A DNA stretch of 64,000 nucleotides from Chthonomonas sp. (GCA_016788585.1 JAEURP010000007.1:1-64000); one strand, 5' to 3'. Shown: positions 626-32,972, numbered from the stretch's first letter. Program-made: numbers and translations. Notes: generated by a model from the sequence alone, not told the origin.

Positions 626-677
626 GTAATTTCCCCCAGCAAATCCGACCCCATCCTGCCAATAATAAGGGCATTCC

Positions 678-3239
678 ATGCGCCAGCTTAAGTACGCCCA
701 CTCGTTTGAAGTCGTCTCGAACCTGCCCGAGCATCTGCAGAGCTTGCAGAAGCTCGCGATGAATTTTCGGTGGACGTGGGATTTGGAGGCGCAGTTTGTG
801 TTTCGCGAGGTAGATGCGGCGCTATGGGAGGCAGTCGAGCACAATCCGCTGAGGCTGCTGCGGCGGCTGAGTCCAGAGCGGCAGCAACGACTTGCCAGTG
901 ATAAGCTCTTTTTGAACCAATTGAAGGCAGCTGAGGAGAGCCTCGACCAGTACATGGGGGCACAGACTTGGTTTGATGTGGCCTATCCCGGTGAACGTGA
1001 GCGCACGATGGTGGCCTACTTTTGTGCCGAGTTTGGCCTGAGCGAGTGCTTACCCATCTACTCTGGCGGTCTTGGCCTCTTGGCGGGCGATCACTTGAAG
1101 GCGGCGAGCGACCTCGGAATCCCGCTCGTTGGTGTTGGATTGCTTTATTCGCGGGGCTACTTTCGGCAGGCGCTCACCGAAGACGGCTGGCAGAAAGAAA
1201 CCTATCCGCAATACGACTTCTATCAATATCCACTGACTTTGGTGCGAGGGGCCGACGAGCAGCCGCTTCAGGTTCGGGTGGACTTTCCCGACCGCGCCGT
1301 GACTGTGCAAGTTTGGAAAGCCCAAGTTGGGCGGGTCGAGCTTTACCTGCTCGACTCCAATATTCTTGCCAATGCGCCCATTGATCAGGGCATCACAGAC
1401 AACCTTTATGGAGGTGATGAGCATATGCGGATCCGCCAGGAAATGGTGCTTGGCATCGGCGGCTTGAAGGCCTTGACGGCACTTGGGATCAAACCCAGCG
1501 TTTGCCATATGAACGAAGGGCACGCGGCATTCTTGACGCTGGAGCGGCTCCGCATGTTTATGGAGGAGCACAACGTGGACCTGAAGACGGCCCGACAGGT
1601 GACGGTCGCGGGCAATGTCTTCACGACTCATACGCCTGTTCCAGCGGGATTCGACGTCTTCCAACCCGAGTTGTTGGAGCAGTACCTGTTGCGAAAGACG
1701 CAGGCCGTTGGTCTCGATTTTGACGACTTTCTTGCCTATGGACGGATGAACCCCGAAGACCCGGCCGAGCCCTTCAACATGGCCATTTTGGCGATGACGG
1801 GGGCGAACTACGTAAATGGCGTGAGCAAACTTCATGCAGAGGTGAGCCGCGAGATGTTCGCCGATCGCTGGGATGACTTCACGGTGAACGAAGTGCCGAT
1901 CGATGCGGTGACCAATGGCGTTCATACGGGCACGTGGATGGGTGAACGGATGGCAACGCTGCTGAGCAAGCACTTGGGTGAGGGGTGGAAGGATGATCCG
2001 AGCTCGGAAGCGGTCTGGGACGAAGTGGCAACGATTCCCGACGAAGAACTATGGGAGTTACGGGAAGATTCTCGGGGCGACTTCGTTCGTTACGTACGAA
2101 GAAGGGTTTTGAAGACTCTGCAGAAGGGCCGCGCAGGACGCACTGAGCAGTCTGAGGCAGGAACTCTCCTCGATCCTCGCATTCTTACAATCGGTTTTGC
2201 CCGACGATTTGCGACCTACAAGCGTGCGACGCTCTTGTTCTCTGATCGCGAACGGCTCAAGCGAATCTTGCAGCATCCCGAGCGACCCGTCCAGTTTGTT
2301 TTTGCTGGCAAGAGTCACCCGAAAGATGATGGCGGCAAGAAACTGATTCAGGACATTACGAACTTCATCAAGGCGGAGGGCGGAGCTCCTCGGATGGTCT
2401 TCTTGGAAGACTATGACATCGATGTCGCTCGACATTTGGTGCAAGGTGTGGACGTTTGGCTCAATAACCCGCGGCGACCAATGGAGGCGAGTGGGACCAG
2501 TGGCATGAAAGTGGTGCCAAATGGGGGATTAAACTGCTCAGTTCTCGATGGCTGGTGGGCCGAAGGCTATGAGCCGGGCAATGGTTGGGCCATTGGCGAC
2601 GGAGGGGAAGACACCGACACCGGACGCCAAGACTGGGAAGAGAGTCGGGCTCTCTATCAATTGATCGAGCAAGACCTCGCTCCGCTCTTCTACAACCGCA
2701 ACGAGACCGGAATTCCAGTTGGCTGGGTGAAAATGATGCGACAGAGTATGCAGCAACTGGCCCCAATGTTTAGCACGGCACGTATGGTTCGCGAGTACAC
2801 CGACCGCTTCTATATGCCGGCAAATCGCTCCTATTACAACTTGTTGGAGAACGGCTGCGCTAAGGCAAAGGAAGCACTGGTCTGGCGCAAGCGCGTTCGG
2901 GAAGCTTGGCCCAGCGTCGCGCTTCGGTCGGTTCGCGACACCGCACATGCCCAGCATGTAATGGGTGATGAGCTCACCATTACGGCTACGGTAGAACTGG
3001 GGGCGCTCTCGCCTAGCGAGGTTAAGGTTCAGGCGATCGTTGGAACCGTCGGCCCAAACCGCGACTTGGTCGACACCACGGTTTATGAAATGGCGGACAA
3101 GGGAAATGGCGAGTTTGAAGTGACCTTGCCTTGTCGCGAACCGGGGCACCACGGCTATGTGTGCCGCATCGTTCCATTCAATGAGAATGTTCGAGCGGCG
3201 ACCGAGCTGCCAGTAGCAAGCTGGCAGCACGTCGGATAG
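678..3239 (+). CDS. glgP: Alpha-glucan (glycogen/maltodextrin) phosphorylase, GlgP family with DUF3417-type N-terminus
   Basis: 853-aa ORF; N-terminal WTWD/EAQFVFREVD...LW motif and length typical of the bacterial alpha-glucan phosphorylase subfamily; ATG at 678, TAG stop. Confidence 0.88.
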   Translation: MRQLKYAHSFEVVSNLPEHLQSLQKLAMNFRWTWDLEAQFVFREVDAALWEAVEHNPLRLLRRLSPERQQRLASDKLFLNQLKAAEESLDQYMGAQTWFDVAYPGERERTMVAYFCAEFGLSECLPIYSGGLGLLAGDHLKAASDLGIPLVGVGLLYSRGYFRQALTEDGWQKETYPQYDFYQYPLTLVRGADEQPLQVRVDFPDRAVTVQVWKAQVGRVELYLLDSNILANAPIDQGITDNLYGGDEHMRIRQEMVLGIGGLKALTALGIKPSVCHMNEGHAAFLTLERLRMFMEEHNVDLKTARQVTVAGNVFTTHTPVPAGFDVFQPELLEQYLLRKTQAVGLDFDDFLAYGRMNPEDPAEPFNMAILAMTGANYVNGVSKLHAEVSREMFADRWDDFTVNEVPIDAVTNGVHTGTWMGERMATLLSKHLGEGWKDDPSSEAVWDEVATIPDEELWELREDSRGDFVRYVRRRVLKTLQKGRAGRTEQSEAGTLLDPRILTIGFARRFATYKRATLLFSDRERLKRILQHPERPVQFVFAGKSHPKDDGGKKLIQDITNFIKAEGGAPRMVFLEDYDIDVARHLVQGVDVWLNNPRRPMEASGTSGMKVVPNGGLNCSVLDGWWAEGYEPGNGWAIGDGGEDTDTGRQDWEESRALYQLIEQDLAPLFYNRNETGIPVGWVKMMRQSMQQLAPMFSTARMVREYTDRFYMPANRSYYNLLENGCAKAKEALVWRKRVREAWPSVALRSVRDTAHAQHVMGDELTITATVELGALSPSEVKVQAIVGTVGPNRDLVDTTVYEMADKGNGEFEVTLPCREPGHHGYVCRIVPFNENVRAATELPVASWQHVG

Positions 3240-3246
3240 CGCCGGT

Positions 3247-4599
3247 TTACTTCCCGGGCAGGGGTGGCGGCCCGGATTTTTTGGGTGCCGGAGTCGAAGC
3301 TGGCGTTGCTTCTGACTCGATTTGCTTTCGCTCATTTGCTGGCTTCGGGCCTTCGACAACGCCGTCGAGCGGTCCGGCGAAGAGCTTGGCGGCCAAGATG
3401 GTCTGGATCACTTGGGTGATCTGGTTCGCCGTCTCACCAGGGGCGTTACCACCGCCGCTGATGTTGATGAGCTTGGCCTGACCGAGGGCTCGGGCAATCT
3501 CCGGAGCAATCGTCGGGAGCATTTCAAGTTGCTTGAGCGCGAGGTACTGCTCGCCACCTTCGCGCATCGCCTCATTCACTTTGCGGATTCCCTCGGCCTG
3601 GGCTTCGGCAATCCGTCGAATCTTGAGCGCTTCGGCATCGGCGGCGGCGCTAGCGGCAACGATCATTTGTTCGGCGTCGGCTTTGGCGCTGGCGATTTGG
3701 GTCGCGAGGAGTTCCGCCTCGCGTTGAGTGGCGAGGGCGGTTTGCCGCTTGGCTTCCGCCTCAGCGACAACGACGGCGTTTTCTGCGCGACGCTGTTCGA
3801 GATCTCGGGTGCGGTCGCTAATCGCTTGCTCGGCCGTCAGCTGAGCTTCTCTAGAGCGGCGCTCTTGGTCGGCTTGCACGATGTCGGCATTGGCTTTTGC
3901 TTCGAGGGCGGTCTGGCGTCGGCGAGCCTCGGCGACCTCACTTTGCACATCCTTGATGTTCAAGGAGTTAAAGACCAATCCAAGGTCTTGTAGTTCGCGG
4001 GAGCAGGCACTCTTGATGATGATCGCGAGGCGATCATCGTCCTCGCTGGTAGCGAGCGTGTGGTCGATGGAGGCTGGCATGTTCGCGGCTCGGGTCGCAG
4101 CGGATCGGTTAAAGAGTTCGTCGTGATGAAGGAGGTTGATCGCGCGGCGCCCCGTGGAACTCAGGAGGTCGACAAGAATCGAGTTTTGCTCGACCTCGCC
4201 CTTACTGAAGAACTTGTTGGCCGCAGTCTTGATCATCTCATTCGTGTCGCCAATACTAACGATCGCGCTGGCCAGCACGCGGACCTTAATCGGCTTTGTG
4301 CGGCCCTGCTCGTCCACGTCGGCAGTTTGGTCGGCAATGTCGAGGTCGATGTTGATCGCCTTGCTCGGAATGGTAGTGGCAGTCGTTAGGACCGGAATTT
4401 CGACCGCTTTGCCAGGGCCGCGGAAGGTGTTCGTTTTGCCGCCGAACCAACTCACCAAGCGGATGGTTCCCGCATCGACCGTCGTCAAGAAGCGACTGAT
4501 GATGAACGGAATAAAGAGGACAGCAGCGACGATTAGGCCAATCAGGACAAAAAGGGGCGGCAAATTCATGCCGTCAGCCTGAGCAAACAATTGGTTCAT
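3247..4599 (-). CDS. Flotillin-like SPFH/band-7 membrane protein
   Basis: 450 aa; N-terminal TM helix, SPFH core, long Ala/Glu/Gln/Arg-rich coiled-coil (EAEAKRQTALATQREAELL...) typical of flotillin/YqiK. Confidence 0.8.
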   Translation of the reverse strand: MNQLFAQADGMNLPPLFVLIGLIVAAVLFIPFIISRFLTTVDAGTIRLVSWFGGKTNTFRGPGKAVEIPVLTTATTIPSKAINIDLDIADQTADVDEQGRTKPIKVRVLASAIVSIGDTNEMIKTAANKFFSKGEVEQNSILVDLLSSTGRRAINLLHHDELFNRSAATRAANMPASIDHTLATSEDDDRLAIIIKSACSRELQDLGLVFNSLNIKDVQSEVAEARRRQTALEAKANADIVQADQERRSREAQLTAEQAISDRTRDLEQRRAENAVVVAEAEAKRQTALATQREAELLATQIASAKADAEQMIVAASAAADAEALKIRRIAEAQAEGIRKVNEAMREGGEQYLALKQLEMLPTIAPEIARALGQAKLINISGGGNAPGETANQITQVIQTILAAKLFAGPLDGVVEGPKPANERKQIESEATPASTPAPKKSGPPPLPGK

Positions 4600-4689
4600 T
4601 TCCTTATGACAATCTTAGCTGATTGCCAGAGCTAGATACGGGGGAGACCTGGTTTGGTTGCGATGGTCCTAACAAGAGCTCTCGCAAAA

Positions 4690-5316
4690 TTAGGTCTCGC
4701 GGATGACGACGCAAGTTCCTTTTGCTTCGTTGATCTGGGCGACAACGACCTGCTCGCCCTTTCGTACGGTAACGCCGCGCTCGAGTTCAAGCGGATCCAA
4801 AGTGGCGAGCAACTGCTTGATTTCGCCATCTACATTCACGCGGATCAAGCCTCGACCGCTCTCATCAAAGTTCGAGATTGCTTCCGCTGGTTGAGCCAAT
4901 TGTCCTTGGAGACCTTCGCTGGGTTTGCTGGCAAAGCTCAACACGAGCCTCATGATGGGGCGAATGAGGAGAAAAGTGAATAAGATTCCGCCGAAGAAGG
5001 CGGCGGTCCAAATGAGTGGGCCAGTAAGCCGATCTTTGAGGAAGATACCGGTTGCGCCCATGGCAAGAGCCATGGAGAAGAGATTTACCGGAGAGAAGAG
5101 AAGGGGCAGCCCGTGAAGGATCGAATCTCCAAAACCGTGGCCATCGGTGTGTCCATGACCATGATGTCCGTCTGCGATGTGACCGCCGTGGTCGGAAGCA
5201 TGGCCATGCCCGTCTCCGTGGGCGTGGCCGCCGTCACCGTGACCATGCATGAGGCCGAGCCCCATCATGGCGATGAATCCGACTAAGCCGACCAGAAACA
5301 GAATTTCGAAGACCAC
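4690..5316 (-). CDS. NfeD-like membrane protein with C-terminal OB/beta-barrel domain; carries a 40-aa His/Gly/Asp-rich insert
   Basis: N-terminal TM helices; C-terminal GRGLIRVNVDGEIKQL...GEQVVVAQINEAKGTCVVI resembles NfeD C-domain; directly upstream of flotillin (classic NfeD-SPFH pairing); GTG start. Confidence 0.6.
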   Translation of the reverse strand: MVFEILFLVGLVGFIAMMGLGLMHGHGDGGHAHGDGHGHASDHGGHIADGHHGHGHTDGHGFGDSILHGLPLLFSPVNLFSMALAMGATGIFLKDRLTGPLIWTAAFFGGILFTFLLIRPIMRLVLSFASKPSEGLQGQLAQPAEAISNFDESGRGLIRVNVDGEIKQLLATLDPLELERGVTVRKGEQVVVAQINEAKGTCVVIRET

Positions 5317-5327
5317 GCTTCGCTATT

Positions 5328-5942
5328 CTAACTCGCAGCGTCGGCAAAAATCAGGCGAACGCACGACGCAAGCCTTCCATCGAGGGTGTCCGGCAGGACC
5401 TCAAGGGCAAAGGCCATTCGCGTTGGCTCGGTTGCAGACTCCAGTCGAACGACGTCACCGGCGGAAAGGTCGGCAGCGGTAAGGACCTTGGCTCCGCCAG
5501 CGCTTTGATCCAGTAGCAGGGAAGGAACGCCGTTCAAGGTGATCTTCTCTTCGCTCTTTATCCTTCCTTGGTCTCGCCGATTGTGGGCGACGGGCTGCTT
5601 GACACGCTTTAGCGTGAGAACGCGGGTCTTCGAATCTCGGTCGACAACCTGTGTGCGGAAGGTGAACGCCTCTCCAAAGCCTGGGGCTTCGACATAGACC
5701 TGGTCCCCGGTTCTTAGCGCCACGTAAGCGCCCTGAGCCATGGGGGCCTCAATTTGATAGCCGCGACTTGTTTCCCCGATGAATCGGGCCCGGAGAACAC
5801 CCCGTTCTGTTCGAAGCCGCCAAAAGGTCTTGGGCTGAAAGATGGGTTCTGGCCTACGTCGTCTCGCGATCAGAGTCGCAATGACGACGGCGACGGCCCA
5901 AAGGCCGAAAAACCAAAGACTAAGTTGTAGTTCGCTAACCAT
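5328..5942 (-). CDS. Membrane-anchored PilZ-domain protein (putative c-di-GMP receptor)
   Basis: N-terminal TM helix; C-terminal RRDQGR (RRxxxR) followed 22 aa later by DQSAGG (DxSxGG), the canonical PilZ c-di-GMP binding motifs. Confidence 0.55.
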   Translation of the reverse strand: MVSELQLSLWFFGLWAVAVVIATLIARRRRPEPIFQPKTFWRLRTERGVLRARFIGETSRGYQIEAPMAQGAYVALRTGDQVYVEAPGFGEAFTFRTQVVDRDSKTRVLTLKRVKQPVAHNRRDQGRIKSEEKITLNGVPSLLLDQSAGGAKVLTAADLSAGDVVRLESATEPTRMAFALEVLPDTLDGRLASCVRLIFADAAS

Positions 5943-5957
5943 GTCCGCTACTCGCGG

Positions 5958-7415
5958 TCACTTCTCGTTGTCAAAGGCTTTCTCTGCATCGGTATAGGCC
6001 CTAAGGGCCTCACCTAAGCTGATCGTTGCCTCGTCACCGGTCTCGGGATTTCCGGACCGTGTGAATGAGAAGATCTCCGCTGCAGCTTGAGTGAGCAATT
6101 TTTGGGCCAGAACCCTTTGCTCGTGGCTTTGACGATGATTTTCTGGTACGCGTGCCGTTTCGAGGACCCCATCAAGACCTTCGCACGACTTAAAAACGCG
6201 CTGGGCCCGATTCACAACGGCTTGGTTGCCCGGCTGGAGCCGTCCCAATCGCAGGACCTCACGAAGTTCGGCTGCGAGCCGGTCGATCGCCCTTCGGCTA
6301 ACGGCAACGAGTCGCGTATAGACGTCAGCGGTGCCAGCGTCGTCGGTGGGCGGCATCGTGCTCATTAGTCGGCGGGCCTCTGCCGTGTCACCCTCCAGAC
6401 CGACGGTGACGGCCAAAGAAGCCTGCACTGCAGGCTTGGACTCTCGACTGAGCACCGTCATAAAAGCCTCACGGGCTTGCTGGTAAAGGCCTCGGAGGAG
6501 CGCGACATTGCCTTTGAGCTCTAAGATTTCGAGGCTGTCGGGATTCCGAGCCTGCGCCTCTTGAAGCTCCTCAGCGGCCCGGTCTGCCTCGCCCAGGGCC
6601 AGTAAACAGCGAATGTGAGCGAGCCTGAAACTCTGCTCGCCGGGCCAGATAAGGAGCGCCCGGCGGCACTCATCGACTGCCTCGTTATTTTTGCCTAGCC
6701 GAATCAGAGTGTCGATCAATAGCTTCCTGATGGGAAGTTCATTGGGTGCTTGGTCGACCGCTTCCCAGAGCACCGTGACCGCCTCTGCCGATTGCTTGGC
6801 GGCAATGAGCGCATCGACTTGGGAAAGCAGGGCGCCGGCGTCTGGTGCGACAGTTGGCGTGACGGGATCGGGCGTGGTGATCGTGCCCTCGCTGGGGTTG
6901 GGATCAGGCACCGCGACCTTTCGGACGTGGTCCTTGAAGAGGTTTTGACGAAGCTCGAAGCCCCATGATCGTGCTAGAGCCTGTTCGGCTTGAATGCGGC
7001 TATTGACTCCGCCTACCTCCGCCCGTGTTTCCAGAGTCTTGGTCCAAGCCGGCTTTCGTTGCCCAGTTCGGTAGACGCTGATGATGGTCCCGAGTAGGTC
7101 CTTCTCGGACTTCACGATGATCGTAACCCAAAATGGCGCCTTTAGCGCTCGGGCGACCGCTTCCATCTGCTCCTGAGTGGGCTCGAAAACACCCTCCGGA
7201 GCCAAGCGATTGTAGATGGCGTCCCGAAACTGCGGATCATTGTAAGACCACACGATCGGGTTGAGTGTGAAGACGGTACTGAATTCCTGAGAGACGGCGA
7301 TCGCGATGTCGCTCACCGCATCTTGGGGGACCTTTTGGTGGATCAGGAGGGCAGGCTCTTGCGCTACGGCAATCCCCGGCAGGATGAGCATTCCGAGCAG
7401 AAACTGGCGAAGCAT
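5958..7415 (-). CDS. Secreted TPR-repeat protein
   Basis: Signal-peptide-like MLRQFLLGMLILPGIAVAQ if ATG at 7415 is used (track ORF extends to a TTG at 7448); TPR-like helical repeats in C-terminal half. Confidence 0.5.
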   Translation of the reverse strand: MLRQFLLGMLILPGIAVAQEPALLIHQKVPQDAVSDIAIAVSQEFSTVFTLNPIVWSYNDPQFRDAIYNRLAPEGVFEPTQEQMEAVARALKAPFWVTIIVKSEKDLLGTIISVYRTGQRKPAWTKTLETRAEVGGVNSRIQAEQALARSWGFELRQNLFKDHVRKVAVPDPNPSEGTITTPDPVTPTVAPDAGALLSQVDALIAAKQSAEAVTVLWEAVDQAPNELPIRKLLIDTLIRLGKNNEAVDECRRALLIWPGEQSFRLAHIRCLLALGEADRAAEELQEAQARNPDSLEILELKGNVALLRGLYQQAREAFMTVLSRESKPAVQASLAVTVGLEGDTAEARRLMSTMPPTDDAGTADVYTRLVAVSRRAIDRLAAELREVLRLGRLQPGNQAVVNRAQRVFKSCEGLDGVLETARVPENHRQSHEQRVLAQKLLTQAAAEIFSFTRSGNPETGDEATISLGEALRAYTDAEKAFDNEK

Positions 7416-11366: not shown

Positions 11367-12023
11367 TTGGCTATGTCGGAACAGGCGGAAGTAAAGGTCG
11401 AAGAGAAGGCCAAGAAAGGCGGTGGCAAGATGATCATCATCGCCGTCTTGGCATTGGCGATGGCAGGTGGTGGCTATTTTGGAATGGCCTCTAAGAAGGG
11501 CCCGGAGAAGCCAAAGGGTCCTGAACTGGGCGACATGGTTGAAATGACGCCAGAGTTCATTGTGAACTTGAGGGAACGCGAGGTGTTCTTGCGCGCATCA
11601 GTTTCGTTCCAACTGGACAAAAACAACAAAGATGTTCACCTTGGGGGTGATGGTGGGGGGCACGGGGGAGCCTCCGCGCCATCCCCCGAAATGACGGCCT
11701 TGCGCGATGCGATCACGGAGCGTCTTAGCACTCTGAGCGTGAACGACATTAAACGCGCCGACTTCTATGCCCGCTTGCGCCGGGTCTTGGCCGACGACGC
11801 TAATCGGGTTTTGGCGTTGCTCAGCCACAAGGAGGATGCCGCCGCCGACAAGAAGGGCGATAAGAAAAAGGAGGACGACCACGGTCATGCTGAGCCGCCC
11901 AAGAAGGCGAGCCTTTACTCGGTCGTACTCGATCCATCGAAGCTGGAGCATCCCGATTGGGATAGTGACAAGGGCCCGATTCTGAAGGTCTACATCACGA
12001 GTTTCGCAACTCAGAGGGAGTAG
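11367..12023 (+). CDS. FliL-like single-TM protein (tentative)
   Basis: Short charged N-terminus, TM helix, then PEFIVNLRE...ASVSFQLD resembling FliL core; not in a flagellar operon. Confidence 0.35.
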   Translation: MAMSEQAEVKVEEKAKKGGGKMIIIAVLALAMAGGGYFGMASKKGPEKPKGPELGDMVEMTPEFIVNLREREVFLRASVSFQLDKNNKDVHLGGDGGGHGGASAPSPEMTALRDAITERLSTLSVNDIKRADFYARLRRVLADDANRVLALLSHKEDAAADKKGDKKKEDDHGHAEPPKKASLYSVVLDPSKLEHPDWDSDKGPILKVYITSFATQRE

Positions 12024-22209: not shown

Positions 22210-22305
22210 AGGATTCCTCGCGCGGCGGCCCGACCAACGCTATCCTGCCCGCCAAGGGCGGACACCCAAACTCTAACTTACCTCTTTTTTGGTCAGCTCC
22301 AATGG

Positions 22306-22332
22306 TTGACATATGATACACATGTCTACTAT
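22306..22332 (+). promoter_or_regulatory. Sigma-70-like promoter candidate for the phage head module (TTGACA-15-TACTAT)
   Basis: Direct reading; spacer slightly short (15 nt). Confidence 0.3.
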
Positions 22333-22344
22333 TGCTATGTTCGC

Positions 22345-23163
22345 ATGACAATGACCCAAAACATTCTTAATCGCCGCGCGGCTGCTGCTGGCCCAGGCTA
22401 TCTCGGCGCGCGGAGCCATCTCGATGACCTTCGTCGCCAGAATCTCGTCCAAGAGTTCCGCGACGCCGGCCAAGATCCGCCCGACTATCTTCAACAAGCC
22501 CACGACTGGATCGAGAGGGAAGCCAAGCTCTTCGAAGCCGGCGACTTTCCCGACAAAGGCGTGAGCATCACCCAAGAAGACCTGAAGGAAATTGAATCCG
22601 AGTTCGATCTGCCGGTCCCGGTGCTGATCGAGCACGCTCAGAACCCTCTCGAACTCGGCTACCTTACTGCGGTTCGGGCCGAAGGCAACGAACTCTTCGG
22701 AACGGTGGCACTGACACCCGAGGCCGACGCCCTCATCCGTCGTTGCGGCGCAAAGTCGCTTTCCCTCGGTCTAACACCCGACCTCAAAGCGATTCGCGAG
22801 GTCAGCCTCGTGCAAAACCCGCGCATCAGCGACGCCCAACTCTTCCGCGCCGGACACCTCCTTCCCTCAATCAATGCCGAGGCGCACACCGAGAAGATGG
22901 TCCGCGAGGGCCGCTTGCTCCCGAGCCAGGCTCCCTTCGCCAAAGCGCTCCTGGAGTGCCCGAAATCGGTCGAGTTCGAGGGCGCGATGAAGCCGGTTCA
23001 GCAACTCATCATCGAGTTCCTCAATCGCATGCCGTGCTTCAAGCTCTACGGCGCGGTCGCTCCCGCCAGCATCGTCAACAGCACCCTCACCAACGAGGAG
23101 CTCGACTTCTATCAACGCTACTTCCCGGGCCTCAAGCCGGAAGACATTCTCCAACACAGATAA
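22345..23163 (+). CDS. Phage prohead protease (HK97/S78-like; Mu gpI-like) with C-terminal scaffold-like extension
   Basis: DLPVPVLIEHAQNPLELGYLTAVRAEGNELFGTVALT matches the vpvl.nHd...iG......ed.GL motif of HK97-family prohead proteases; helical C-terminal half; ATG at 22345 avoids overlap with nhaA. Confidence 0.6.
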   Translation: MTMTQNILNRRAAAAGPGYLGARSHLDDLRRQNLVQEFRDAGQDPPDYLQQAHDWIEREAKLFEAGDFPDKGVSITQEDLKEIESEFDLPVPVLIEHAQNPLELGYLTAVRAEGNELFGTVALTPEADALIRRCGAKSLSLGLTPDLKAIREVSLVQNPRISDAQLFRAGHLLPSINAEAHTEKMVREGRLLPSQAPFAKALLECPKSVEFEGAMKPVQQLIIEFLNRMPCFKLYGAVAPASIVNSTLTNEELDFYQRYFPGLKPEDILQHR

Positions 23164-23167
23164 GAAA

Positions 23168-23608
23168 ATGCCAGCCCTATCAAAACCCTTTGAATCCCTC
23201 GAAAGGCCCGGTCTCGTGGTCTCCTACAAGCTCTCCAATGTCGCCGTTTGGAAGGGCGCGCTACTCGGCGTCAATAGCAGCGGCTTCGCCGTGCCCATGG
23301 CGCATGGCACGGCGAACCTCCGGTTCATCGGCGTCGCTAACGAGTCGGTGAACAATGCCTCGGGCAGCGCCGGCGATAAGTCGGTGAATGTCACGAAAGC
23401 GGGTTCGTTCGTCTTCACACCGAACTCCGGCTATACCCCGGCCCAAGGCGATCTCGGCGCGGAAGTTTACGCTGTGAACGATAACCAAGTCCAAATCGTG
23501 ACGACCGGCCTGACCTCCGCCTACAAGATCGGCACGGTCAGCGCCCTCGAAACGACCTCCACTGGCAGCGCGGGCGTCCGCGTTCGCATCGACCGCTACT
23601 CCCTCTAA
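23168..23608 (+). CDS. Phage head-associated protein (decoration or scaffold candidate), function unknown
   Basis: 146-aa Gly/Ser/Thr/Val-rich beta-type protein encoded between protease and major capsid gene, same strand, 4-nt spacing. Confidence 0.4.
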   Translation: MPALSKPFESLERPGLVVSYKLSNVAVWKGALLGVNSSGFAVPMAHGTANLRFIGVANESVNNASGSAGDKSVNVTKAGSFVFTPNSGYTPAQGDLGAEVYAVNDNQVQIVTTGLTSAYKIGTVSALETTSTGSAGVRVRIDRYSL

Positions 23609-23614
23609 ACCACT

Positions 23615-24529
23615 ATGCCACTTACCAGAAGCGATATTCCTGAGCTTATGCTTGCCGGTCTCAAGACCGAATTCGACCTTGCCTACCGCGCCCAAGTCTC
23701 GAACAGCGCGGTCGAGCAGATCGCGACCGTCATCTCGACCACGCTGCCCGTGCAGAAGTACGGCTGGCTCGGCTTCTCGCCGCCGATGCGCGAGTTCATT
23801 GACGAACGCCAGCCGCTCGGCCTTTCCTCGCAATCCACCTCGATCGAGGACAAGGTTTTCGAGTCCACCCTCGCCGTTCAGCGCAAGGCGATCGAGGACG
23901 ACCAGTTCGACCTCATCCGCCTGCGCATCCAAGAGATGGCGTCGCGCGTGGCCCTGCACCGTCACCAGATGGTTGTCGAGTCGCTCGCCAATGGCAATGC
24001 CGGCACGATTTACGACGGCAATGCCTACTTCGCCGAGCGCACGGTGGGCGCGAACACCTTCTCGAACCTCTCGACCGATGCGCTCGATGCAACAGCAATC
24101 CGTGATGCGGTGAGTGCAATGATGAGCGTGCGCGACGAGACCAACTCGCCGATGGGCATCACGCCCGACACGCTGCTCGTCGGCCCCAGCCTCATGTGGA
24201 CGGCGATGGAGCTCGTGCAGAGCCCGGTCGTGGTCTCCGGCGGCGCCGCGCCGAGCTATCTCAATGTCTTCCAAGGCAAGCTCAAGGTCATCGTCTCGCC
24301 CTTCCTCACCGGCGACCACGCTGACAAGTGGTTTGTGCTCGACACCAGCCGCCCCGTCCGCCCGATCATCATGCAACAGCGCAGCGACGTTCCGGTGGAG
24401 TTCACCGCCCTCGAATCAGGCTCGGGTTCGGAGTCCGCTTTCATGCGCGATCTCTACATGTACGGCGTGCGCGGGCGATACAACGTCGGCTACGGCCTAT
24501 GGCAACTCGCCTACGGCGGTGGTTTCTGA
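23615..24529 (+). CDS. Major capsid protein, Mu gpT-like (HK97 fold)
   Basis: 304 aa; overall resemblance to Mu-like prophage major head subunit gpT (PF10124) by eye, including the characteristic C-terminal ...YGLWQ...GGGF end; follows the prohead protease. Confidence 0.65.
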   Translation: MPLTRSDIPELMLAGLKTEFDLAYRAQVSNSAVEQIATVISTTLPVQKYGWLGFSPPMREFIDERQPLGLSSQSTSIEDKVFESTLAVQRKAIEDDQFDLIRLRIQEMASRVALHRHQMVVESLANGNAGTIYDGNAYFAERTVGANTFSNLSTDALDATAIRDAVSAMMSVRDETNSPMGITPDTLLVGPSLMWTAMELVQSPVVVSGGAAPSYLNVFQGKLKVIVSPFLTGDHADKWFVLDTSRPVRPIIMQQRSDVPVEFTALESGSGSESAFMRDLYMYGVRGRYNVGYGLWQLAYGGGF

Positions 24530-24786
24530 TGAATGTGGACCTCACCGTTCTGCTGGGCGGGGTGGTCACGGGAATCTTGGCATTGGCTCGCATCACGTTG
24601 AACCAGCACAAGGCTCTTGTGGATCGCTTCGTCTCGTTCGTTGAGGCTTCCGTGAGGCGGCAAGAAACTTCGGCCGAGCAGGTCGCGCAAGCGTTGCGCG
24701 ACCTGGCCGAGGGCACTCGGGAGAATACGATGACCTTGCGCCGAATGGGCGAACAGCTCGGCGTCCACTTTCGCAAGGGGGCGTAA
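24529..24786 (+). CDS. Small single-TM protein in capsid module
   Basis: 85 aa, ATG overlaps capsid-gene stop (TGATG); TM helix LTVLLGGVVTGILALARI followed by charged helix. Confidence 0.45.
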   Translation: MNVDLTVLLGGVVTGILALARITLNQHKALVDRFVSFVEASVRRQETSAEQVAQALRDLAEGTRENTMTLRRMGEQLGVHFRKGA

Positions 24787-25188
24787 ATGGCGCTATCAGT
24801 CCTGGTCGCCGATATTCAGGCGCGCGCCAACGTCCACGACTCAGCTTACGAGACTGAGATTGATGAGGTTGTGGCGCGCCTCCTGCCCGTCGTCTCCTAC
24901 GCGCTTCGTCCGGAGGCTCTTGCCTCCGGCGACGCCGGGCTGCAGGCCGTGCTTGATGATGGAGCCGCCGACGTGATCGCGGGCACGTTCCTGGCTCAAC
25001 ATTACCGCCGCCCGGAGCTGCTGCTGTCGGTCATCGTCGGCGACCTCCAACTCTTCCCCCGCCGATTTGAAAGTGTTGCCGACCCAAGCGGTTTGATCGC
25101 CCAAGGTTGGCTCAAGCTAAAGCCCTGGCTCAAGCCCGACTCCACAGCCCCTGTCCTCGCCGCGAGCGGCAAAGGAGTTCCGTCATGA
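24787..25188 (+). CDS. Phage head-tail connector (gp6-like adaptor) candidate
   Basis: 133 aa; N-terminal LVADIQARANVHDSAYETEIDEVVARLLPVV resembles gp6-like connector N-termini; translationally coupled (TAAATG). Confidence 0.35.
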   Translation: MALSVLVADIQARANVHDSAYETEIDEVVARLLPVVSYALRPEALASGDAGLQAVLDDGAADVIAGTFLAQHYRRPELLLSVIVGDLQLFPRRFESVADPSGLIAQGWLKLKPWLKPDSTAPVLAASGKGVPS

Positions 25189-25493
25189 GTGTCCTCATCG
25201 AGCGTCTGTCCGACTCGCTGGAAGTCTTCGGCGAGCCGATTTTGATCGAAGACGAACCTGCCCAAGCCTTCGTCCGCGTCTACTCGGCCGCCGAAGCGCG
25301 CCTCTATCTTGAAGAAGCCGTCATCACCGCCGCCTCCCGCCCCATCCGCGGCTTCTTCGTCTTAGCTGATACCGTCGCGGCCATCGGCAATACGATCGAA
25401 TGGCTTGGCGAAACCTACGAAATCGCCTTCATCCGCCGCTACCGCATCAGCGGCGCGGACGTGGGACTGGGCCTGATCGCAGTCCTACCGTAG
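25185..25493 (+). CDS. Small phage head-completion-like protein
   Basis: 102 aa, ATGA overlap with upstream gene; last gene of the module. Confidence 0.35.
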   Translation: MSVLIERLSDSLEVFGEPILIEDEPAQAFVRVYSAAEARLYLEEAVITAASRPIRGFFVLADTVAAIGNTIEWLGETYEIAFIRRYRISGADVGLGLIAVLP

Positions 25494-25626
25494 CTCCCTC
25501 CTCTCCCCTTGCGGGAGAGGAAGTTCGAGGAGTTCCGCGCGATAGCAAGGGAAGCTCGAACAGGAGAGGGGTTTCTCGCTTTGACCTCACCCCTAACCCC
25601 TCTCCTCCGCCACCCGCTACCCGCGA
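25494..25626. terminator. Two GC-rich hairpins between convergent capsid module and gspE-like gene (bidirectional termination region)
   Basis: cctctcccc-ttgc-gggagagg and aggagagggg...cccctctcct inverted repeats read directly. Confidence 0.45.
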
Positions 25627-27271: not shown

Positions 27272-28867
27272 TTACTCGTCAATAGCGCCGAAGTTGGCGA
27301 TGATGATGTCGATATCGCCAGCATCGACTTCACCGCTAACATCTACATCGGAGTTTGGATTGCCATTACCGACGGGCCAAATCGCGCCGAAGTCGGCGAT
27401 GACTTGATCGATGTCGGCGGCGTCCACTTCGCCAGAGGTGTCGACGTCCCCATTAACAAGTGCCACTGCACCGATATTGATATCGGTCGGAGTCGCGCTA
27501 CCAGGAACGGTTACGTTGACGGTCTTCTTCAAGAAAGAAGCCCCGTCGAACACAATCGTGTATTGGTTCGTCGCCCCAGCCGGAGGTACGTTTGGCAAGA
27601 TCACGCGAACCGACGACGAGGTCGAAGCTGTGCCAACCAAGAGGCCGCCATGAGTGATTGGCATTACGCCAGAGAAGACTTGATAGGTGATCGCTCTCTG
27701 ATAGGCCATCGCACCCACATCTTGAAGGTTGACCGTCCCCACAAAGTCCTGTCCCTGCACAGCGATGCCCAAAGCAATATTGCTAATACGGGATGGGCTG
27801 ACAGCTCCTTGAGTTCCGACCGGTCCAGAGACCGCAGTCGACGTTCCCGGCGCCGTGGATCGCCACAGGTTGTGGGTGCTCGAGCCTACGTGAGGGTTAG
27901 CATAGACGGCCCCAATTCCATTCAACTGTGCTGCCGTCGTGGCCGTGGTGGCTCCCCCATTGTTGTACTGCTGCCCCATCCAGAATGTCTGATCGGTTGG
28001 GACCGTTGGAAACGCCGTGCTGACACCGGTTCGCCAAACAAAGCTACCCGCGGTATGGGATGAAACATAGGTGTGTCCCGTGAGCCATGTCCCTGGGTCG
28101 AAAACTCCCGTCGGACCAGGGGTCCCAGTTCCCTGCAAATGGAAGCGGATGAGGCTCTGGAAGGTGGCAGCGGCACCTGTTCGGGTCGCCCAGTTGACGG
28201 CTGTAATCTGCTGACCAGCGTAGCCTGGCATCGGAGTGACGTCATCGTAAATCGCGGTCGTATAGGCCGGCACATCCGCATCCTGCGCGCCGCCAAGTGC
28301 GGTCAGCGTTGTCTGCGTACCCGTCGCGTAGCACTGATAGATATAGAACCTTCCAGTTTGGACCGGTGACCCAACTGGGATCCCAGAGAGTTGGAAATCG
28401 ATGCCGGTCGTCGTGGCTTCTTCAGGATAAACGCCGCCGACTAGGGCCACGTCGTTCACGTACTCAAGGGTCCAGGTGGAGCCATTGAGAATAAAGCACC
28501 CTTTGAGGGTCGAGGCTGCTGTTCGAGTTCCTGGTGTTACCGGGCCATAGCTGTTGGTGAGACCAAACTCGTGGTATAGGGTCGGGTAATTGGCGTGCTT
28601 CAGTCGGACTTTCTTGGCAGAGGCAAGAGTGCCTGACCCATCGACGGTACCAGCGTGGACTGTTACAACATCGCCCAACACATAGCTGCTCCGTGCGGCC
28701 TGGGTAACGGAAGTGTTCCCGCTGAAGCCTGCCGGGCCCGAAAAGAAGCCAGCGGTCATGCGCCAGCCGTCGTTGGTTGCATTTGCAAGGCCAGGGATCG
28801 CGGTCGCAACGAGGCCTGCGACCAATGGCAGAGATCGATATCGAATAATCATAAGAGTCCGAGGCAT
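27272..28867 (-). CDS. Secreted beta-rich protein with C-terminal dockerin-type tandem Ca-binding repeat (paralogue A)
   Basis: Signal peptide; C-terminus VNGDVDTSGEVDAADIDQVIADFG...DVDVSGEVDAGDIDIIIANFGAIDE = two dockerin type-I-like DxDxSGxVDxxDID loops. Confidence 0.65.
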   Translation of the reverse strand: MPRTLMIIRYRSLPLVAGLVATAIPGLANATNDGWRMTAGFFSGPAGFSGNTSVTQAARSSYVLGDVVTVHAGTVDGSGTLASAKKVRLKHANYPTLYHEFGLTNSYGPVTPGTRTAASTLKGCFILNGSTWTLEYVNDVALVGGVYPEEATTTGIDFQLSGIPVGSPVQTGRFYIYQCYATGTQTTLTALGGAQDADVPAYTTAIYDDVTPMPGYAGQQITAVNWATRTGAAATFQSLIRFHLQGTGTPGPTGVFDPGTWLTGHTYVSSHTAGSFVWRTGVSTAFPTVPTDQTFWMGQQYNNGGATTATTAAQLNGIGAVYANPHVGSSTHNLWRSTAPGTSTAVSGPVGTQGAVSPSRISNIALGIAVQGQDFVGTVNLQDVGAMAYQRAITYQVFSGVMPITHGGLLVGTASTSSSVRVILPNVPPAGATNQYTIVFDGASFLKKTVNVTVPGSATPTDINIGAVALVNGDVDTSGEVDAADIDQVIADFGAIWPVGNGNPNSDVDVSGEVDAGDIDIIIANFGAIDE

Positions 28868-28928
28868 TGGATAGCCTGAAGTTCTTTATACAGGACTCTT
28901 TCTAAAATCGCTAACTTTTAGTCGAAAA

Positions 28929-30044
28929 TTACTCGTCTACGGCACCGAAATTGGCAATCACCAGATCAATGTCCGCCGCGTCCACTTCGCCACTGAGGTC
29001 GAGATCGGCGAATTCGTTGCCTACGCCAGGAAAGACCTGCCCAAACGAGGCGATGACTTCATCGATGTCGGCGGCATCCACTTCTCCTGAACCGTCGACA
29101 TCGCCATTGGTTAGCGCGACAGTTCCAATATCAATCGACTCTGGCATCACACTAGGCGGCACCGGTACCTGCACCAAGATAGTCTTGTGCAGGAAGGGCT
29201 GCCCGCCAATTCGGATAGAAATAGGGTTTGTAGTACCCGTTGGCAATACGGCTGGAACGGTAAGCCAAAACGCATCTGTCGCCGCCAAGTTGCTCATGCT
29301 AATCGCTTCCGAGGCGAACGTGACGCTTCCCGAAATCGCCGTGACTTGGATGGTACGCCCATGGGCCATGGGCGTGATCACATCGTTCAGCGTGATACGG
29401 CCATGAAAGTCCTGCCCAGGGATACCCAACGACAGAGCGAGATTCCCGTATTCGTAGGCTCCGGGGGGATTGTTGCTGTAGATGAGATCTGAGGCTGCGC
29501 TACTGCGAAAGACGTTCGCATCCGAGGTGCCGCGAGCAACCGTGCCCGGCATGATCCCCATCTCATTGAGCTGGGATACCGTTGCCATGCCATTTCCGTT
29601 GGAATCATTGTCGAGGGCAATGCCAACATAGAACTTCGAGGCAGGTACAGACAAGTCCCCACCGGCCGTGCTGAAGATGGCGTTTTCTGTCGAGTAACCG
29701 GCCATCCGAATAGCATCCCCGGTGAAGGCGGTGGTTCCCAGGTAGGTGCCCAGGGTAGAGCCTGGCCCGTTGGCCTCCCAGAACCGAATCCTCGGGCGAA
29801 AGCTCACATCGGCAAGATTGTAATTGTAAAACGTGGAGGCGATTGCTGTGACTTCGCGACCTGCATAAAGGCTCATCGCCGTAACATCGTCGGCGAGCGT
29901 TTTGGTGATTGGAGTGGTCCCGGATTGGGCAAACGAGGGGTACAAGCAGTCGTCGGCCATGGGCTCAGACTGATAGACCCAATAGGGAGACTGGGCCAGC
30001 CCAATCGCTGGCAACACACACAAGCTCAGTAGAAGCAGTCGCAT
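28929..30044 (-). CDS. Secreted protein with C-terminal dockerin-type repeat (paralogue B)
   Basis: Signal peptide MRLLLLSLCVLPAIGLAQ (ATG 30044; alternative TTG 30086); C-terminal TNGDVDGSGEVDAADIDEVIASFG...DLDLSGEVDAADIDLVIANFGAVDE. Confidence 0.65.
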   Translation of the reverse strand: MRLLLLSLCVLPAIGLAQSPYWVYQSEPMADDCLYPSFAQSGTTPITKTLADDVTAMSLYAGREVTAIASTFYNYNLADVSFRPRIRFWEANGPGSTLGTYLGTTAFTGDAIRMAGYSTENAIFSTAGGDLSVPASKFYVGIALDNDSNGNGMATVSQLNEMGIMPGTVARGTSDANVFRSSAASDLIYSNNPPGAYEYGNLALSLGIPGQDFHGRITLNDVITPMAHGRTIQVTAISGSVTFASEAISMSNLAATDAFWLTVPAVLPTGTTNPISIRIGGQPFLHKTILVQVPVPPSVMPESIDIGTVALTNGDVDGSGEVDAADIDEVIASFGQVFPGVGNEFADLDLSGEVDAADIDLVIANFGAVDE

Positions 30045-30091
30045 CTGAAAAAGGTTCAACGAAATCCTTTGCACCGATCGTGCCAAAGATT

Positions 30092-30117
30092 GGGGGCGTC
30101 ACAGTAATGACGCCCCC
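30092..30117 (-). terminator. Rho-independent terminator candidate after paralogue C (GGGGGCGTCA-loop-TGACGCCCCC, T-stretch on minus strand)
   Basis: Perfect 10-bp stem read directly; followed by AATCTTT on the coding strand. Confidence 0.5.
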
Positions 30118-30174
30118 AAGATCAATTAAGTTCAAGCTGGGGCTAGTCTCAGGACTGAAACCCCAGTTCAAACA

Positions 30175-31344
30175 TCAAACGTCGTCGACAGCGCCGAAGT
30201 TGGCAATAACGATGTCGATATCTGCAGCATCCACTTCACCATTGATGTCGCAGTCGGAATTAGCAGCTGCATCGGTTTCCGCAGAGATCACGGCACCGAA
30301 GTCAGCGATCACCTGATCGATGTCAGCCGCGTCGACTTCACCCGAGCCATCGCAGTCGCCATTTGTCAACGCAACATCGGGAACCACGATTGCAACGGGA
30401 GCATCGTTCGGAGCTGCTGGAATCGTCACGTCGAACTTTCGCTTCAAGAACTGACCGCCGTCCATGGTGATGGTGACGGGGTTTGAGGCGCCAATAGGGA
30501 GGCGAGCTGGGCATCGTATGGCCAATGCACCTACGTTTGGACCTGCAGCAGCATAGGTGAAGATGTAGTAACCGGCAAGAATAACATTGCCGGCAGCAAC
30601 CGTAATGTTAATGGTCTTGGCATAGGCGGGCGAAACTACGTCGTTCATCGTCATGTTGAAGTTGTAGTTTTGCGACATCAGACCAAAGTCCATATCCAAC
30701 GTGTCGCCAGCTGGAAGGAGGCTCTGTACGCCATTTCCTGCTACGATCGCTTGGAACCAGCTACCTGGGGTGTTGGTGGTGTAGATCGCATCGGTGCTCG
30801 GCGCGAAGAACCCCGAGTTAGCAACCGCCTTTCCTAATGCCATTAGGTTGAGGTCTGCATCAGTGGCACCGGTCGTGTTGGCATTGTTGTCATACACCCA
30901 ACCCGCCCAGAACTTTCCGCTCGCTGGAACCAACACGTTGTTGGCGACCGTTGGAGCAAATGCATAGTAGTTGTTGCCGGGAACAAAGGAAATCGCCGCA
31001 AACGAGAAGCCGGGGCCTAAGGTTGCAGGATCGTTAATGCCAGTTGGTCCAACAGTTGTTCCGTCAGCTTGGTGCATGCGGTATCGAGGGCGGCAGCTAA
31101 TCGCCGCGCCACCAGTGTTTACCGTGTTCCAAGCGATATAGCGAATTGGCTGACCTGCCCACATAGGATCGATATTGATGTCGTCGGTGACGTACTTCGT
31201 GATCGGGCCCGCACCAGCAACGGCGCCGCCATTAATGACCGATCCGTTGGTCGCCCCTACAGCGGAAACGTAAAAGACGCCCTGAGCGTGCGCAAGGCTC
31301 CCAATAAGGAGTGCGCCCAAAGCGGTTAGAGTGAGTTTGTTCAT
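30175..31344 (-). CDS. Secreted protein with C-terminal dockerin-type repeat (paralogue C)
   Basis: Signal peptide MNKLTLTALGALLIGSLAHAQ with GAGGA RBS; C-terminal TNGDCDGSGEVDAADIDQVIADFG...DCDINGEVDAADIDIVIANFGAVDDV. Confidence 0.65.
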   Translation of the reverse strand: MNKLTLTALGALLIGSLAHAQGVFYVSAVGATNGSVINGGAVAGAGPITKYVTDDINIDPMWAGQPIRYIAWNTVNTGGAAISCRPRYRMHQADGTTVGPTGINDPATLGPGFSFAAISFVPGNNYYAFAPTVANNVLVPASGKFWAGWVYDNNANTTGATDADLNLMALGKAVANSGFFAPSTDAIYTTNTPGSWFQAIVAGNGVQSLLPAGDTLDMDFGLMSQNYNFNMTMNDVVSPAYAKTINITVAAGNVILAGYYIFTYAAAGPNVGALAIRCPARLPIGASNPVTITMDGGQFLKRKFDVTIPAAPNDAPVAIVVPDVALTNGDCDGSGEVDAADIDQVIADFGAVISAETDAAANSDCDINGEVDAADIDIVIANFGAVDDV

Positions 31345-31483
31345 GGATATCCTCAATTTCTGACAGACTTCGGCGCGCCAGATAGGCCACCGATAGTGAC
31401 CTCTACTATAACTCAAGTTCATCCTAAGTGTATGACAATTCTATGAGGAATTGAGAAGTCCCGGCCAAATACCAGCGAAAACC

Positions 31484-31550: not shown

Positions 31551-32972
31551 GTGAGTCTACGGATCAATACAAACATTACGGCCCTCAGCGCGTTGCGCAG
31601 CCTCAACAGCACAACTGAGGCGATGAGCCGACAGATTTCGCGCCTGAGTACGGGCCTGCGAATCAACAATGCCGCCGACGACCCGGCTGGCCTGATCATC
31701 AGCGAAAACCTGCGCACCCAGATGCTCGGTATCGACCAGGCCACCCGCAATGCCCAGGACGCCGTAAACATGGCCAAGACAGCCGAAGCCGCCCTGGAAG
31801 AGGTTCAGACCCTCATCCGCAACATGCGCGGCCTCGCCGTCCACTCGGCGAATACCGCGGTTGTGGACGCCAATATGCTTCAGGCTAACCAAGCGCAGAT
31901 TCGAAACGCCATTCAATCCATCAACCGAATTGCCTCGCAAACCAGTTGGGGCACCCGCCAACTCCTCGATGGCTCCGCCGGCGCCCAGGCCAACGTGACC
32001 AATGGCGCCGCTGTGGGCAGCATTTATATGGGTGGGATGTTCAATGGCGAGTCGGTGGCAACCGGCCCAATCACCATGACCCGGGTGACCGCGGGTGAGC
32101 GCGCCGCCGTCAGCCTCGGCAACACATTCGCCAGCGTTAACGCAATCGTTCCGACCCCGGGCGCTTTCGTCATCAATGGCTTCAGCTTCAGCACAGACGG
32201 TGCAGAGTCGGTCCAATCGCTCCTCGCGAAGATCAACGCCATGTCGAGTTCGACGGGGGTCACCGCGCAGTTCAATGGCGGTTCGATCCAACTGACCGCC
32301 GGCGAGTTTGGCTCTAGGCATGCAGTGAACTTCTTTGATCCCTCGAACATCCTGCACACGGCCAGTAGCGCGACTGATACGGGAGTGGATGCAGTGTTCG
32401 ATGTTTCGATGAACACGGACGCCGGCATTCAAACCGCGACGTTCACCGGCGACGGCCTACGATTGCGCGATGGCTACGGCAACATCATCTTGCTCACGGA
32501 GCAAGGCAATGCCACGGCTGGTGTTCAATCCGTCGGAATGATGACCGCCGGATCGGTTAACTTCCACATCGGAGCAGGTTCAAATCAGTCGGTTGCTTAT
32601 TCGCTGCCCAATGCCTACGCGAACCGCCTCGGCACTGGCGTCATCGCGAACATGGACCTTTCGCAAGTCGATGTGACCACCCAAACGGGCGCACAACAGG
32701 CAATTCAAATCATTGATGCCGCAGTGTCCCAACTCGGTCAATGGCGAGGCGATCTCGGTTCGTTTCAGGTCAACTTCCTTGAGTCAACGATCCGGTCACT
32801 CGGCGTAGTCAAAGAAAACCTAGCCGCCTCCGAGAGCCAAATCCGTGACGCAGACATGGCGATGGAGATGACCAGCTACACGAAGTACCAAATCCTGCAG
32901 CAAAGTGGCATGGCAATGTTGGCTCAAGCGAATCAAGCCCCTACAAATGTTCTGCAACTCCTCCAACAATAG
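31551..32972 (+). CDS. fliC: Flagellin
   Basis: N-terminal LRINTNITALSALRSLN...LSTGLRINNAADDPAGL and C-terminal conserved flagellin D0/D1 segments; GTG start. Confidence 0.9.
   Translation: MSLRINTNITALSALRSLNSTTEAMSRQISRLSTGLRINNAADDPAGLIISENLRTQMLGIDQATRNAQDAVNMAKTAEAALEEVQTLIRNMRGLAVHSANTAVVDANMLQANQAQIRNAIQSINRIASQTSWGTRQLLDGSAGAQANVTNGAAVGSIYMGGMFNGESVATGPITMTRVTAGERAAVSLGNTFASVNAIVPTPGAFVINGFSFSTDGAESVQSLLAKINAMSSSTGVTAQFNGGSIQLTAGEFGSRHAVNFFDPSNILHTASSATDTGVDAVFDVSMNTDAGIQTATFTGDGLRLRDGYGNIILLTEQGNATAGVQSVGMMTAGSVNFHIGAGSNQSVAYSLPNAYANRLGTGVIANMDLSQVDVTTQTGAQQAIQIIDAAVSQLGQWRGDLGSFQVNFLESTIRSLGVVKENLAASESQIRDADMAMEMTSYTKYQILQQSGMAMLAQANQAPTNVLQLLQQ

Follow-up and report, generated by a model that had tools for sequence, protein, structure and literature searches.

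What could the head genes of a bacteriophage be doing in a bacterial chromosome when no other part of the phage accompanies them? The question is raised by a 64,000-nt stretch of Chthonomonas sp. DNA (GCA_016788585.1, JAEURP010000007.1:1-64000; one strand, hereafter the window), where inspection of the region 22306-25493 revealed six consecutive genes for a prohead protease, a cement-like protein, a Mu-type capsid protein, a small membrane protein and two predicted neck proteins. We favor, with a probability of roughly 0.6, that this module is one half, the head and neck, of an ancient tail-less head and packaging set of Mu-like origin that has become fixed in the chromosome, with assembly of DNA-filled heads as its likeliest function and with the large terminase (TerL) and the portal supplied from another locus of the same genome.

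The six open reading frames (ORFs), here g1 to g6, are intact, located on the plus strand and span 22345-25493, and gene calls from an independent assembly of this sequence give the identical six. Their order is protease/scaffold, cement, capsid, membrane protein, adaptor and stopper, and they are tightly coupled: g3 and g4 overlap in TGATG and g5 and g6 in ATGA, g4 and g5 adjoin without a gap, and the other junctions measure 4 and 6 nt. The coupling had been pointed out in an initial sequence-only reading of the region, and so had the neighbors, nhaA upstream and a convergent gspE-type ATPase gene downstream, all of which we were able to verify; nhaA lies on the opposite strand. The start of the module at 22306 however required correction, as this coordinate is the TTGACA of a promoter-like motif and the first ATG is found at 22345. 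In the existing genome annotation, where g5 and g6 bear the locus tags JNK63_03540 and JNK63_03545, five of the six proteins are labeled 'hypothetical'.

The identity of the module rests foremost on g3 (23615-24529, plus strand, 304 aa), a major capsid protein of the Mu gpT family with HK97 fold, which matches Pfam PF10124 Mu-like_gpT with 197 bits (cut-off 20.1; E 5.3e-58) and also Phage_capsid_4, congruent with the earlier assignment. Upstream, g1 (22345-23163, plus strand, 272 aa) matches PHROG 976, head maturation protease, at 3.6e-7. Residues E96-H97 and S140 are invariant across 11 orthologs and recur in the proteases of Faecalibacterium phage FP_Mushu and of a canonical Mu-like phage, L032 (an uncultured phage contig from public assemblies; L numbers denote loci of other genomes throughout). 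Conserved are also the motifs PVPVLIEH, GAKSLSLGL and EVSLV, as well as GRLxPxQ and FYxRYFP in the C-terminal scaffold or targeting domain, which is shortened in g1. GRLxPxQ matches gp29 of FP_Mushu, and the hhalign comparison of the two proteins is limited to this short stretch. The Pfam search gave neither an S78 nor a Mu-like_Pro match for g1, hence of the proposed HK97/S78-type prohead protease the protease stands, whereas the S78 type is not established and Mu gpI-like appears to be the better description. With catalytic His and Ser present in a protease gene immediately upstream of the cement and capsid genes, the arrangement is the one expected of a Mu-like head.

The intervening g2 (23168-23608, plus strand, 146 aa) is a beta-rich, cement or decoration-like protein. 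It matches PHROG 1731, virion structural protein, at 1.5e-19, bearing out the suggested association with the head, and aligns with gp30 of FP_Mushu, its positional counterpart in the phage. The genes at the g2 position of L031 and L034 show weak Pfam matches to Phage_cement_2 or Phage_cement; similarity to g2 of the window was detected in L031 (42% identity) and not in L034. Profile searches of PDB sequences from g1 and g2 yielded nothing useful. The protein following the capsid, g4 (24529-24786, plus strand, 85 aa), is kept in most loci and consists of a single N-terminal hydrophobic, transmembrane helix, as previously noticed, and a helical tail. In most other lineages a second small transmembrane gene of ~80 aa, gX, lies between the capsid gene and g4; the window is devoid of gX.

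The last two genes bear on the likely function. Family searches of g5 (24787-25188, plus strand, 133 aa) and g6 (25185-25493, plus strand, 102 aa) in Pfam, PHROG and NCBIfam returned no match, and their folds were instead assessed using models built from homolog alignments. These models confidently predict for g5 a portal-binding, head-to-tail adaptor of the HK97 gp6 / SPP1 gp15 / Mu gpJ fold, and for g6 a head-closure or stopper protein with an SPP1 gp16 / HK97 gp7-like beta-barrel that matches the stopper of RcGTA (6tba_3A), giving substance to what had been called connector-like proteins. To our knowledge, adaptor and stopper proteins are known solely as parts of the portal neck.

No other part of a phage is apparent in the surroundings. 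Portal, terminase, tail and integrase genes were absent when all sizeable ORFs of the window, together with ~8 kb past its 3' end, were inspected using Pfam, PHROG and annotation, and the 22 kb upstream and the 46 kb downstream of the module contain no terminase-portal pair. Similarly, tblastn with Armatimonadota TerL and portal queries returned nothing in the window, and a PHROG scan of the six window ORFs lacking a Pfam match gave no phage match. The context of a Mu-like late operon, with a PF06074 portal, gpF and terminase upstream and a tail downstream, was likewise not encountered in the window. Direct, att-like repeats flanking the module were not found, and the single tRNA of the window is placed at 40432, 15 kb from the module. 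The description as an orphan module thus holds for the window.

The module is widespread, and more than 20 loci were recovered from Armatimonadota (Fimbriimonadaceae-like). A genome-collection scan with the capsid protein as query detected it in 13 loci, 12 of which are from metagenome-assembled genomes labeled Armatimonadota. The thirteenth, L010 (JADZEW010000005.1), is labeled as a Methanoregulaceae archaeon; its capsid is 59% identical to that of the window and its layout is as in L006 and L008, and it is probably a mis-binned bacterial contig. Homologs of the capsid number 512 at E<=1e-10, the best 120 of which are 59-91% identical, and those of g5 number 134. Among the matches carrying an organism name, all but one in the list of the best 120 capsids, and all but one in the g5 list, are from Armatimonadota. 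Viral collections are on the other hand poor in relatives, with just three among the IMG/VR viral contigs (24-36% identity), and the best capsid of a cultured phage reaches 36% identity.

In all inspected loci the module is flanked by cellular genes, which vary by lineage: elsewhere these include cytochrome c peroxidase with transhydrogenase/FTHFS, tricorn protease, dxr/rseP, carbamoyl-phosphate synthase and ppk/ilvC. L002-L005 and L014 maintain the gene order of the window, as revealed by the comparison with relatives that had been proposed as a check. The capsid diverges in step with a neighboring housekeeping gene, a GFO/IDH/MocA-family oxidoreductase (GFO): capsid and GFO are 91% and 85% identical to the window in L004/L005, 79% and 78% in L002/L003, and 63% and 64.5% in L017, where the GFO ortholog still adjoins the module. 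In L014, g5 is 79% and gspE 94% identical to the window. This parallel divergence suggests vertical descent, and the gene set thus appears to have been inherited vertically within Fimbriimonadaceae-like Armatimonadota following its descent from a Mu-like phage.

Selection was assessed as Nei-Gojobori proportions of nonsynonymous and synonymous differences (pN and pS), with L004, L005 and L014 as the close comparisons. Synonymous sites are saturated (pS 0.5-0.8) and pN spans 0.065-0.24 for the six genes. Versus L004, pN and pS amount to 0.155 and 0.80 for g1, 0.134 and 0.56 for g2, and 0.065 and 0.64 for g3, indicative of purifying selection on the capsid, for which such an analysis had been suggested. 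For g4 the values are 0.10 and 0.73 versus L014, and pN of g5 and g6 is 0.135 and 0.24 versus their closest orthologs. No frameshifts or internal stops are present in the six genes. Judged from this conservation, the module is not a decaying prophage, congruent with the initial argument from intact ORFs, which is now joined by low pN at saturated pS and by the synteny in relatives.

Where, then, are the missing partners of the neck? In two sister genomes they directly adjoin the module. On the contigs of L024 (1.26 Mb) and L025 (573 kb), genes for TerL (414-433 aa; Terminase_6N/6C) and a short Mu-type portal (Portal_Mu, PF06074; 356-359 aa) follow in this order directly 3' of g6, with housekeeping genes next. 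In TerL, conservation extends to the motifs of Walker A (GRRWGKT), Walker B (VDEAA) and the nuclease. The full set is hence contiguous in these genomes, comprising protease/scaffold, cement, capsid, one or two small membrane proteins, adaptor, stopper, TerL and portal, and genes for tail, lysis, regulation, integration or replication are absent from it. The sequence-only reading had regarded portal, terminase and tail genes directly beside the module as the mark of an ordinary prophage; no tail genes are found beside it even here, where TerL and portal adjoin. The more distant L031 (capsid 52% identical) also displays a tail-less order, with Portal_Mu downstream of g6, beside hslVU and a dehydrogenase gene of the Ldh family (malate/lactate). 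Conversely, L027 and L028 hold TerL-portal pairs with cellular genes around them and no head module upstream, and GcvT of L027 is 62.5% identical to GcvT of the window. The nearest true phage, L032, with a capsid 49% identical, exhibits the complete phage arrangement of TerL, portal, Mu F, protease, capsid, neck and tail.

In a rough neighbor-joining tree of capsids, computed without support values, the Armatimonadota modules form one clade with L031 as sister and phage L032 outside, and the two linked loci, L024 and L025, are nested among unlinked ones. This nesting suggests that the linked state is ancestral and has been broken several times. A portal-based metagenome scan recovered 4 loci via narrow peptide patterns, a sampling that does not provide a frequency of split versus linked states. 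Integrase, replication, lysis, alpA and HNH genes were not detected at the annotated module loci using Pfam, PHROG and NCBIfam, save for a Phage_integrase match ~3 kb upstream of the module in L015, which is XerC/D-like and not conserved. Linked TerL and portal after g6, the portal downstream in L031 and the orphan TerL-portal pairs favor the head portion of a split cluster, one of the candidates originally put forward. Published genome descriptions offer a possible backdrop: a paper on the Chthonomonas calidirosea genome terms that genome 'seemingly disorganized' (PMC4959169), and in F. ginsengisoli the genes of the dnaA region are scattered and the rRNA operon is split (PMC4072686). Dispersal of a head and packaging cluster fits such a background. 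The latter paper reports one prophage of 45.5 kb, the sole one mentioned (PMC4072686).

We therefore consider it most likely, by analogy with the other contigs, that the TerL-portal pair of the present genome resides at another locus. As g5 and g6 keep portal-neck folds and the family keeps a terminase, assembly of a DNA-filled head is the most likely function, and the module genes probably build DNA-carrying capsids for the cell. In such a scheme, a conserved promoter of its own would drive the operon, and on a portal provided in trans, g1 as protease/scaffold and g3 as capsid protein would form a procapsid. Self-digestion of g1 would clear it from the shell and the terminase would fill the head with DNA, after which the portal would be bound by a ring of the g5 adaptor and sealed by a ring of the g6 stopper, with the shell being reinforced by the g2 cement protein. 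The product would be a DNA-filled head, either tail-less or fitted with a tail that is encoded elsewhere or borrowed from a phage, and the particle would resemble a gene transfer agent (GTA) or an immobilized capsid-forming satellite. The 'GTA' label, particle formation, DNA packaging and any transfer are inferences.

Several observations weigh against this proposal. TerL, portal and tail were not found in the 64 kb window and the adjacent ~8 kb, and a lineage-specific loss is possible. No small terminase (TerS) and no tail genes are linked to the module at any locus (for tails, within +/-10 kb). In L031, an ABC-type ATPase (ABC_tran + MJ0874) rather than TerL separates g6 and portal. Relative to the phage proteases, the coiled-coil scaffold linker of g1 is mostly deleted and the scaffold part is far shorter. 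Moreover, g6 is fast-evolving, with 44% identity to L002 and pN/pS of 0.65-0.78 in that comparison, and g6 and gX are lost in L006, L008 and L010, hence neck genes can be dispensable. Finally, dN/dS of TerL and portal is uninformative, since synonymous sites are saturated by deep divergence.

Some of these points are equally what would be expected had TerL and portal been lost from this lineage, leaving a closed, portal-less HK97-fold shell that serves as a protein or nucleic-acid nanocompartment, while g5 and g6 would have been recruited to another role. The 72 kb without TerL or portal, the shortened g1 scaffold and the relaxed, occasionally lost g6 all agree with such a shell, and membrane proteins are unusual for a phage head module. 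Furthermore, HK97-fold capsid proteins can assemble with a protease or scaffold alone, as established for HK97. However, the adaptor and stopper folds of g5 and g6 are retained and predicted with confidence, g5 is under constraint, L024 and L025 keep a portal as well as a TerL with intact motifs, and neither a cargo-like gene nor an encapsulin family match was detected. The nanocompartment, which had been listed as a candidate in the sequence-only reading, is thus disfavored by two constrained portal-neck proteins and by the terminase of the family, and we consider it unlikely. The head and neck proteins could alternatively act as decoys, or as a dominant-negative set, against infecting Mu-like phages. 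A target is plausible, given L032 with its 49% identical capsid, and long retention without the rest of the phage would suit a role beneficial to the host. Seven to nine co-linear assembly genes, including a protease with intact active site, TerL and portal, nevertheless exceed the need for interference, the capsid is conserved like housekeeping genes with no sign of hypervariability, and a PADLOC scan gave no defense family match, rendering this option distinctly improbable.

The gene content of the full set, with capsid, protease, portal, connectors and TerL and no tail, and its order of morphogenesis followed by packaging match those phage-inducible chromosomal islands of Proteobacteria that form capsids (cf-PICIs), raising the question of whether the module belongs to a still-mobile satellite that robs a helper phage of tails and possibly of further components. 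Integrase, alpA, rep, HNH and small terminase are however missing at every locus, there are no att repeats and no adjacent tRNA, the chromosomal position is stable with the module co-diverging with its neighbors, and in several genomes the set lies in separate pieces, a state incompatible with self-packaging as one unit. A mobile satellite is accordingly very unlikely. That the module is just what a Mu-like prophage leaves behind as it decays hardly deserves credence, even though its content equals the exact protease-to-neck segment of the FP_Mushu late operon and g6 or gX is lost in some lineages: the six genes combine saturated pS and low pN with an absence of frameshifts and stops, hundreds of homologs occur in one phylum, with boundaries that recur and a promoter-like motif that is conserved, and the housekeeping synteny persists over deep divergence.

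Returning to the favored head and packaging set, how does it compare with known systems? In gene content and order, cf-PICIs are the closest, with capsid, protease, portal and connectors, packaging genes thereafter and no tail, and both they and the present set form deep lineages separate from phages. This content is present in full in L024 and L025, whereas the window holds capsid, protease and connectors only. Unlike cf-PICIs, the set is devoid of int, alpA, rep, HNH and TerS, its capsid is of Mu gpT type, its position is fixed and its inheritance vertical, it is split in several genomes, apparently here too, and its host is an armatimonadote. As in GTAs (RcGTA-type of Alphaproteobacteria, BaGTA, VSH-1, Dd1 and VTA), phage structural and packaging genes are chromosomally fixed and under purifying selection, replication, integration and lysogeny genes are absent, and loci can be dispersed. 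It differs from GTAs in having no linked tail or TerS, in its Mu-like origin, and in the placement of TerL and portal after the neck genes. We know of no GTA described in Armatimonadota, and targeted literature searches likewise found none.

The resemblance to the late operons of Mu-like phages (FP_Mushu gp29-gp33, L032) is evident from the consecutive genes for protease/scaffold, a ~145-aa virion or cement protein, gpT capsid, adaptor and the next neck protein, with the capsids being 35-49% identical to that of the window. Such phages however carry TerS-TerL-portal-gpF upstream and, downstream, the genes of a complete contractile tail, both of which are absent here. Moreover, gpF is missing throughout the family, the portal is shorter by ~70-160 aa, most of the protease's scaffold linker is deleted, and small membrane-protein genes have been inserted after the capsid gene. 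With encapsulins the module shares an HK97-fold shell gene held by the cell without a recognizable virus around it. Encapsulins nonetheless lack maturation protease, cement, adaptor, stopper, terminase and portal and have adjacent cargo with targeting peptides, whereas protease, cement, adaptor and stopper are present in the window, and no encapsulin family match was obtained in Pfam or NCBIfam.

More tentatively, a bacterial class may keep a scattered, tail-less, DNA-packaging capsid machine whose sealed heads take their tails from unrelated phages, as an immobile counterpart to the 'tail piracy' of cf-PICIs, or serve a role other than transfer, possibly tied to the membrane via the two transmembrane proteins. 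If true, this would be a phage domestication distinct from tailed GTAs and from encapsulins. The known domesticated phage particles, GTAs, tailocins and the distantly related encapsulins, are from a handful of lineages, to which would be added a Mu-derived, tail-less head and packaging system that has become fixed throughout a little-studied phylum and, though split into separate loci, stays under constraint. It would constitute a natural test of how far the genes of a machine of viral descent can be scattered over a genome with function retained, a candidate route by which Armatimonadota might exchange genes horizontally, and possibly an evolutionary bridge from capsid-forming satellites to GTAs. 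Targeted literature searches returned no prior description of the module. On a practical note, prophage finders and IMG/VR mostly miss it.

The boundaries of the module lend themselves to further description. The promoter-like motif GGTTGAC-N15-GTCTAC-TA (22304..22335, plus strand) ends ~10 nt 5' of the g1 ATG, and an alignment of upstream regions places it ~10-20 nt 5' of this ATG in the window, L002-L005 and L017, despite differing upstream genes. Across the 64 kb window the pattern has a single occurrence, versus 0.07 expected. A generic sigma-70 scan gave one site at the motif, not above chance, and a second match of the motif in L003 was discarded as a chance occurrence, being inside a coding region. 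No Shine-Dalgarno sequence is visible before g1, suggesting that the leader is very short or lacking. At the opposite end, g6 and gspE converge on a 133-nt spacer, which harbors three stem-loops (25499-25521, 25523-25560 and 25562-25606, plus strand) and a 12-nt perfect inverted repeat, and folds with a minimum free energy of -61 kcal/mol (z = -3.7 versus shuffles). No U-tract follows the hairpins and a generic terminator scan does not call them; they probably act as a bidirectional transcription stop. Two of the three share GGAGAGG/CCTCTCC words, hinting at a repeated element similar to repetitive extragenic palindromes (REP-like) rather than a simple terminator.

A number of further features were observed at loci of relatives. 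L031 contains an additional 356-aa gene inside the module (2874-3944), and its ABC-type ATPase is located at 5049-6356. Downstream of the module in L016 (12688-20450) are proteins of 605, 106, 155 and 510 aa without Pfam match. A 1095-aa protein on the opposite strand of this locus displays very weak tail-fibre / Phage_tail_beta similarity, the sole faint tail-like hint near a module, and was not counted; a PHROG scan of the L016 genes downstream of the module gave no phage match besides this protein. In L018 (IMGVR_UViG_3300027268_000061, 8.9 kb), cement, capsid, small genes, TerL and portal occupy 47-5425, with a capsid 35% identical to that of the window and an AAA_21 ATPase after the portal instead of tail genes. 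The permuted, tail-less layout may hence extend beyond the Armatimonadota clade.

The remaining sizeable ORFs of the window, like all genes called in the 8 kb past its 3' end, are cellular or gave no phage match, with glgP, gcvT, relA, dtd, gatB, a gene for an FHA-domain protein and GFO upstream of the module, and genes for dockerin-domain proteins, fliC, uppS, frr, pyrH, nusA, infB, groES/EL and a two-component system downstream. Single flagellar or motility genes are scattered across it (PilZ/YcgR-like at 5328-5942, fliL at 11367-12023 and fliC at 31551-32972), in agreement with the low operon organization reported for Armatimonadota genomes (PMC4959169, PMC4072686). Three paralogous secreted proteins of 531, 385 and 415 aa with dockerin-type repeat ends are encoded on the minus strand at 27272-31422. 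Dockerin paralogs also flank the module on both sides in L002/L003 (8.1-8.6 kb and 12.1-15.2 kb) and adjoin it in L014 (3.4-5.9 kb) and L031; although recurring, they are probably unrelated surface proteins. Finally, two heptanucleotide tandem arrays were noted, GGGTGTG x11 at 47671-47748 and GGTCTAT x19 at 4-136. One frame of the latter encodes a repeated VYGLWSM, and the matching Logan contig calls a 23S_rRNA_IVP-family gene on the opposite strand there.

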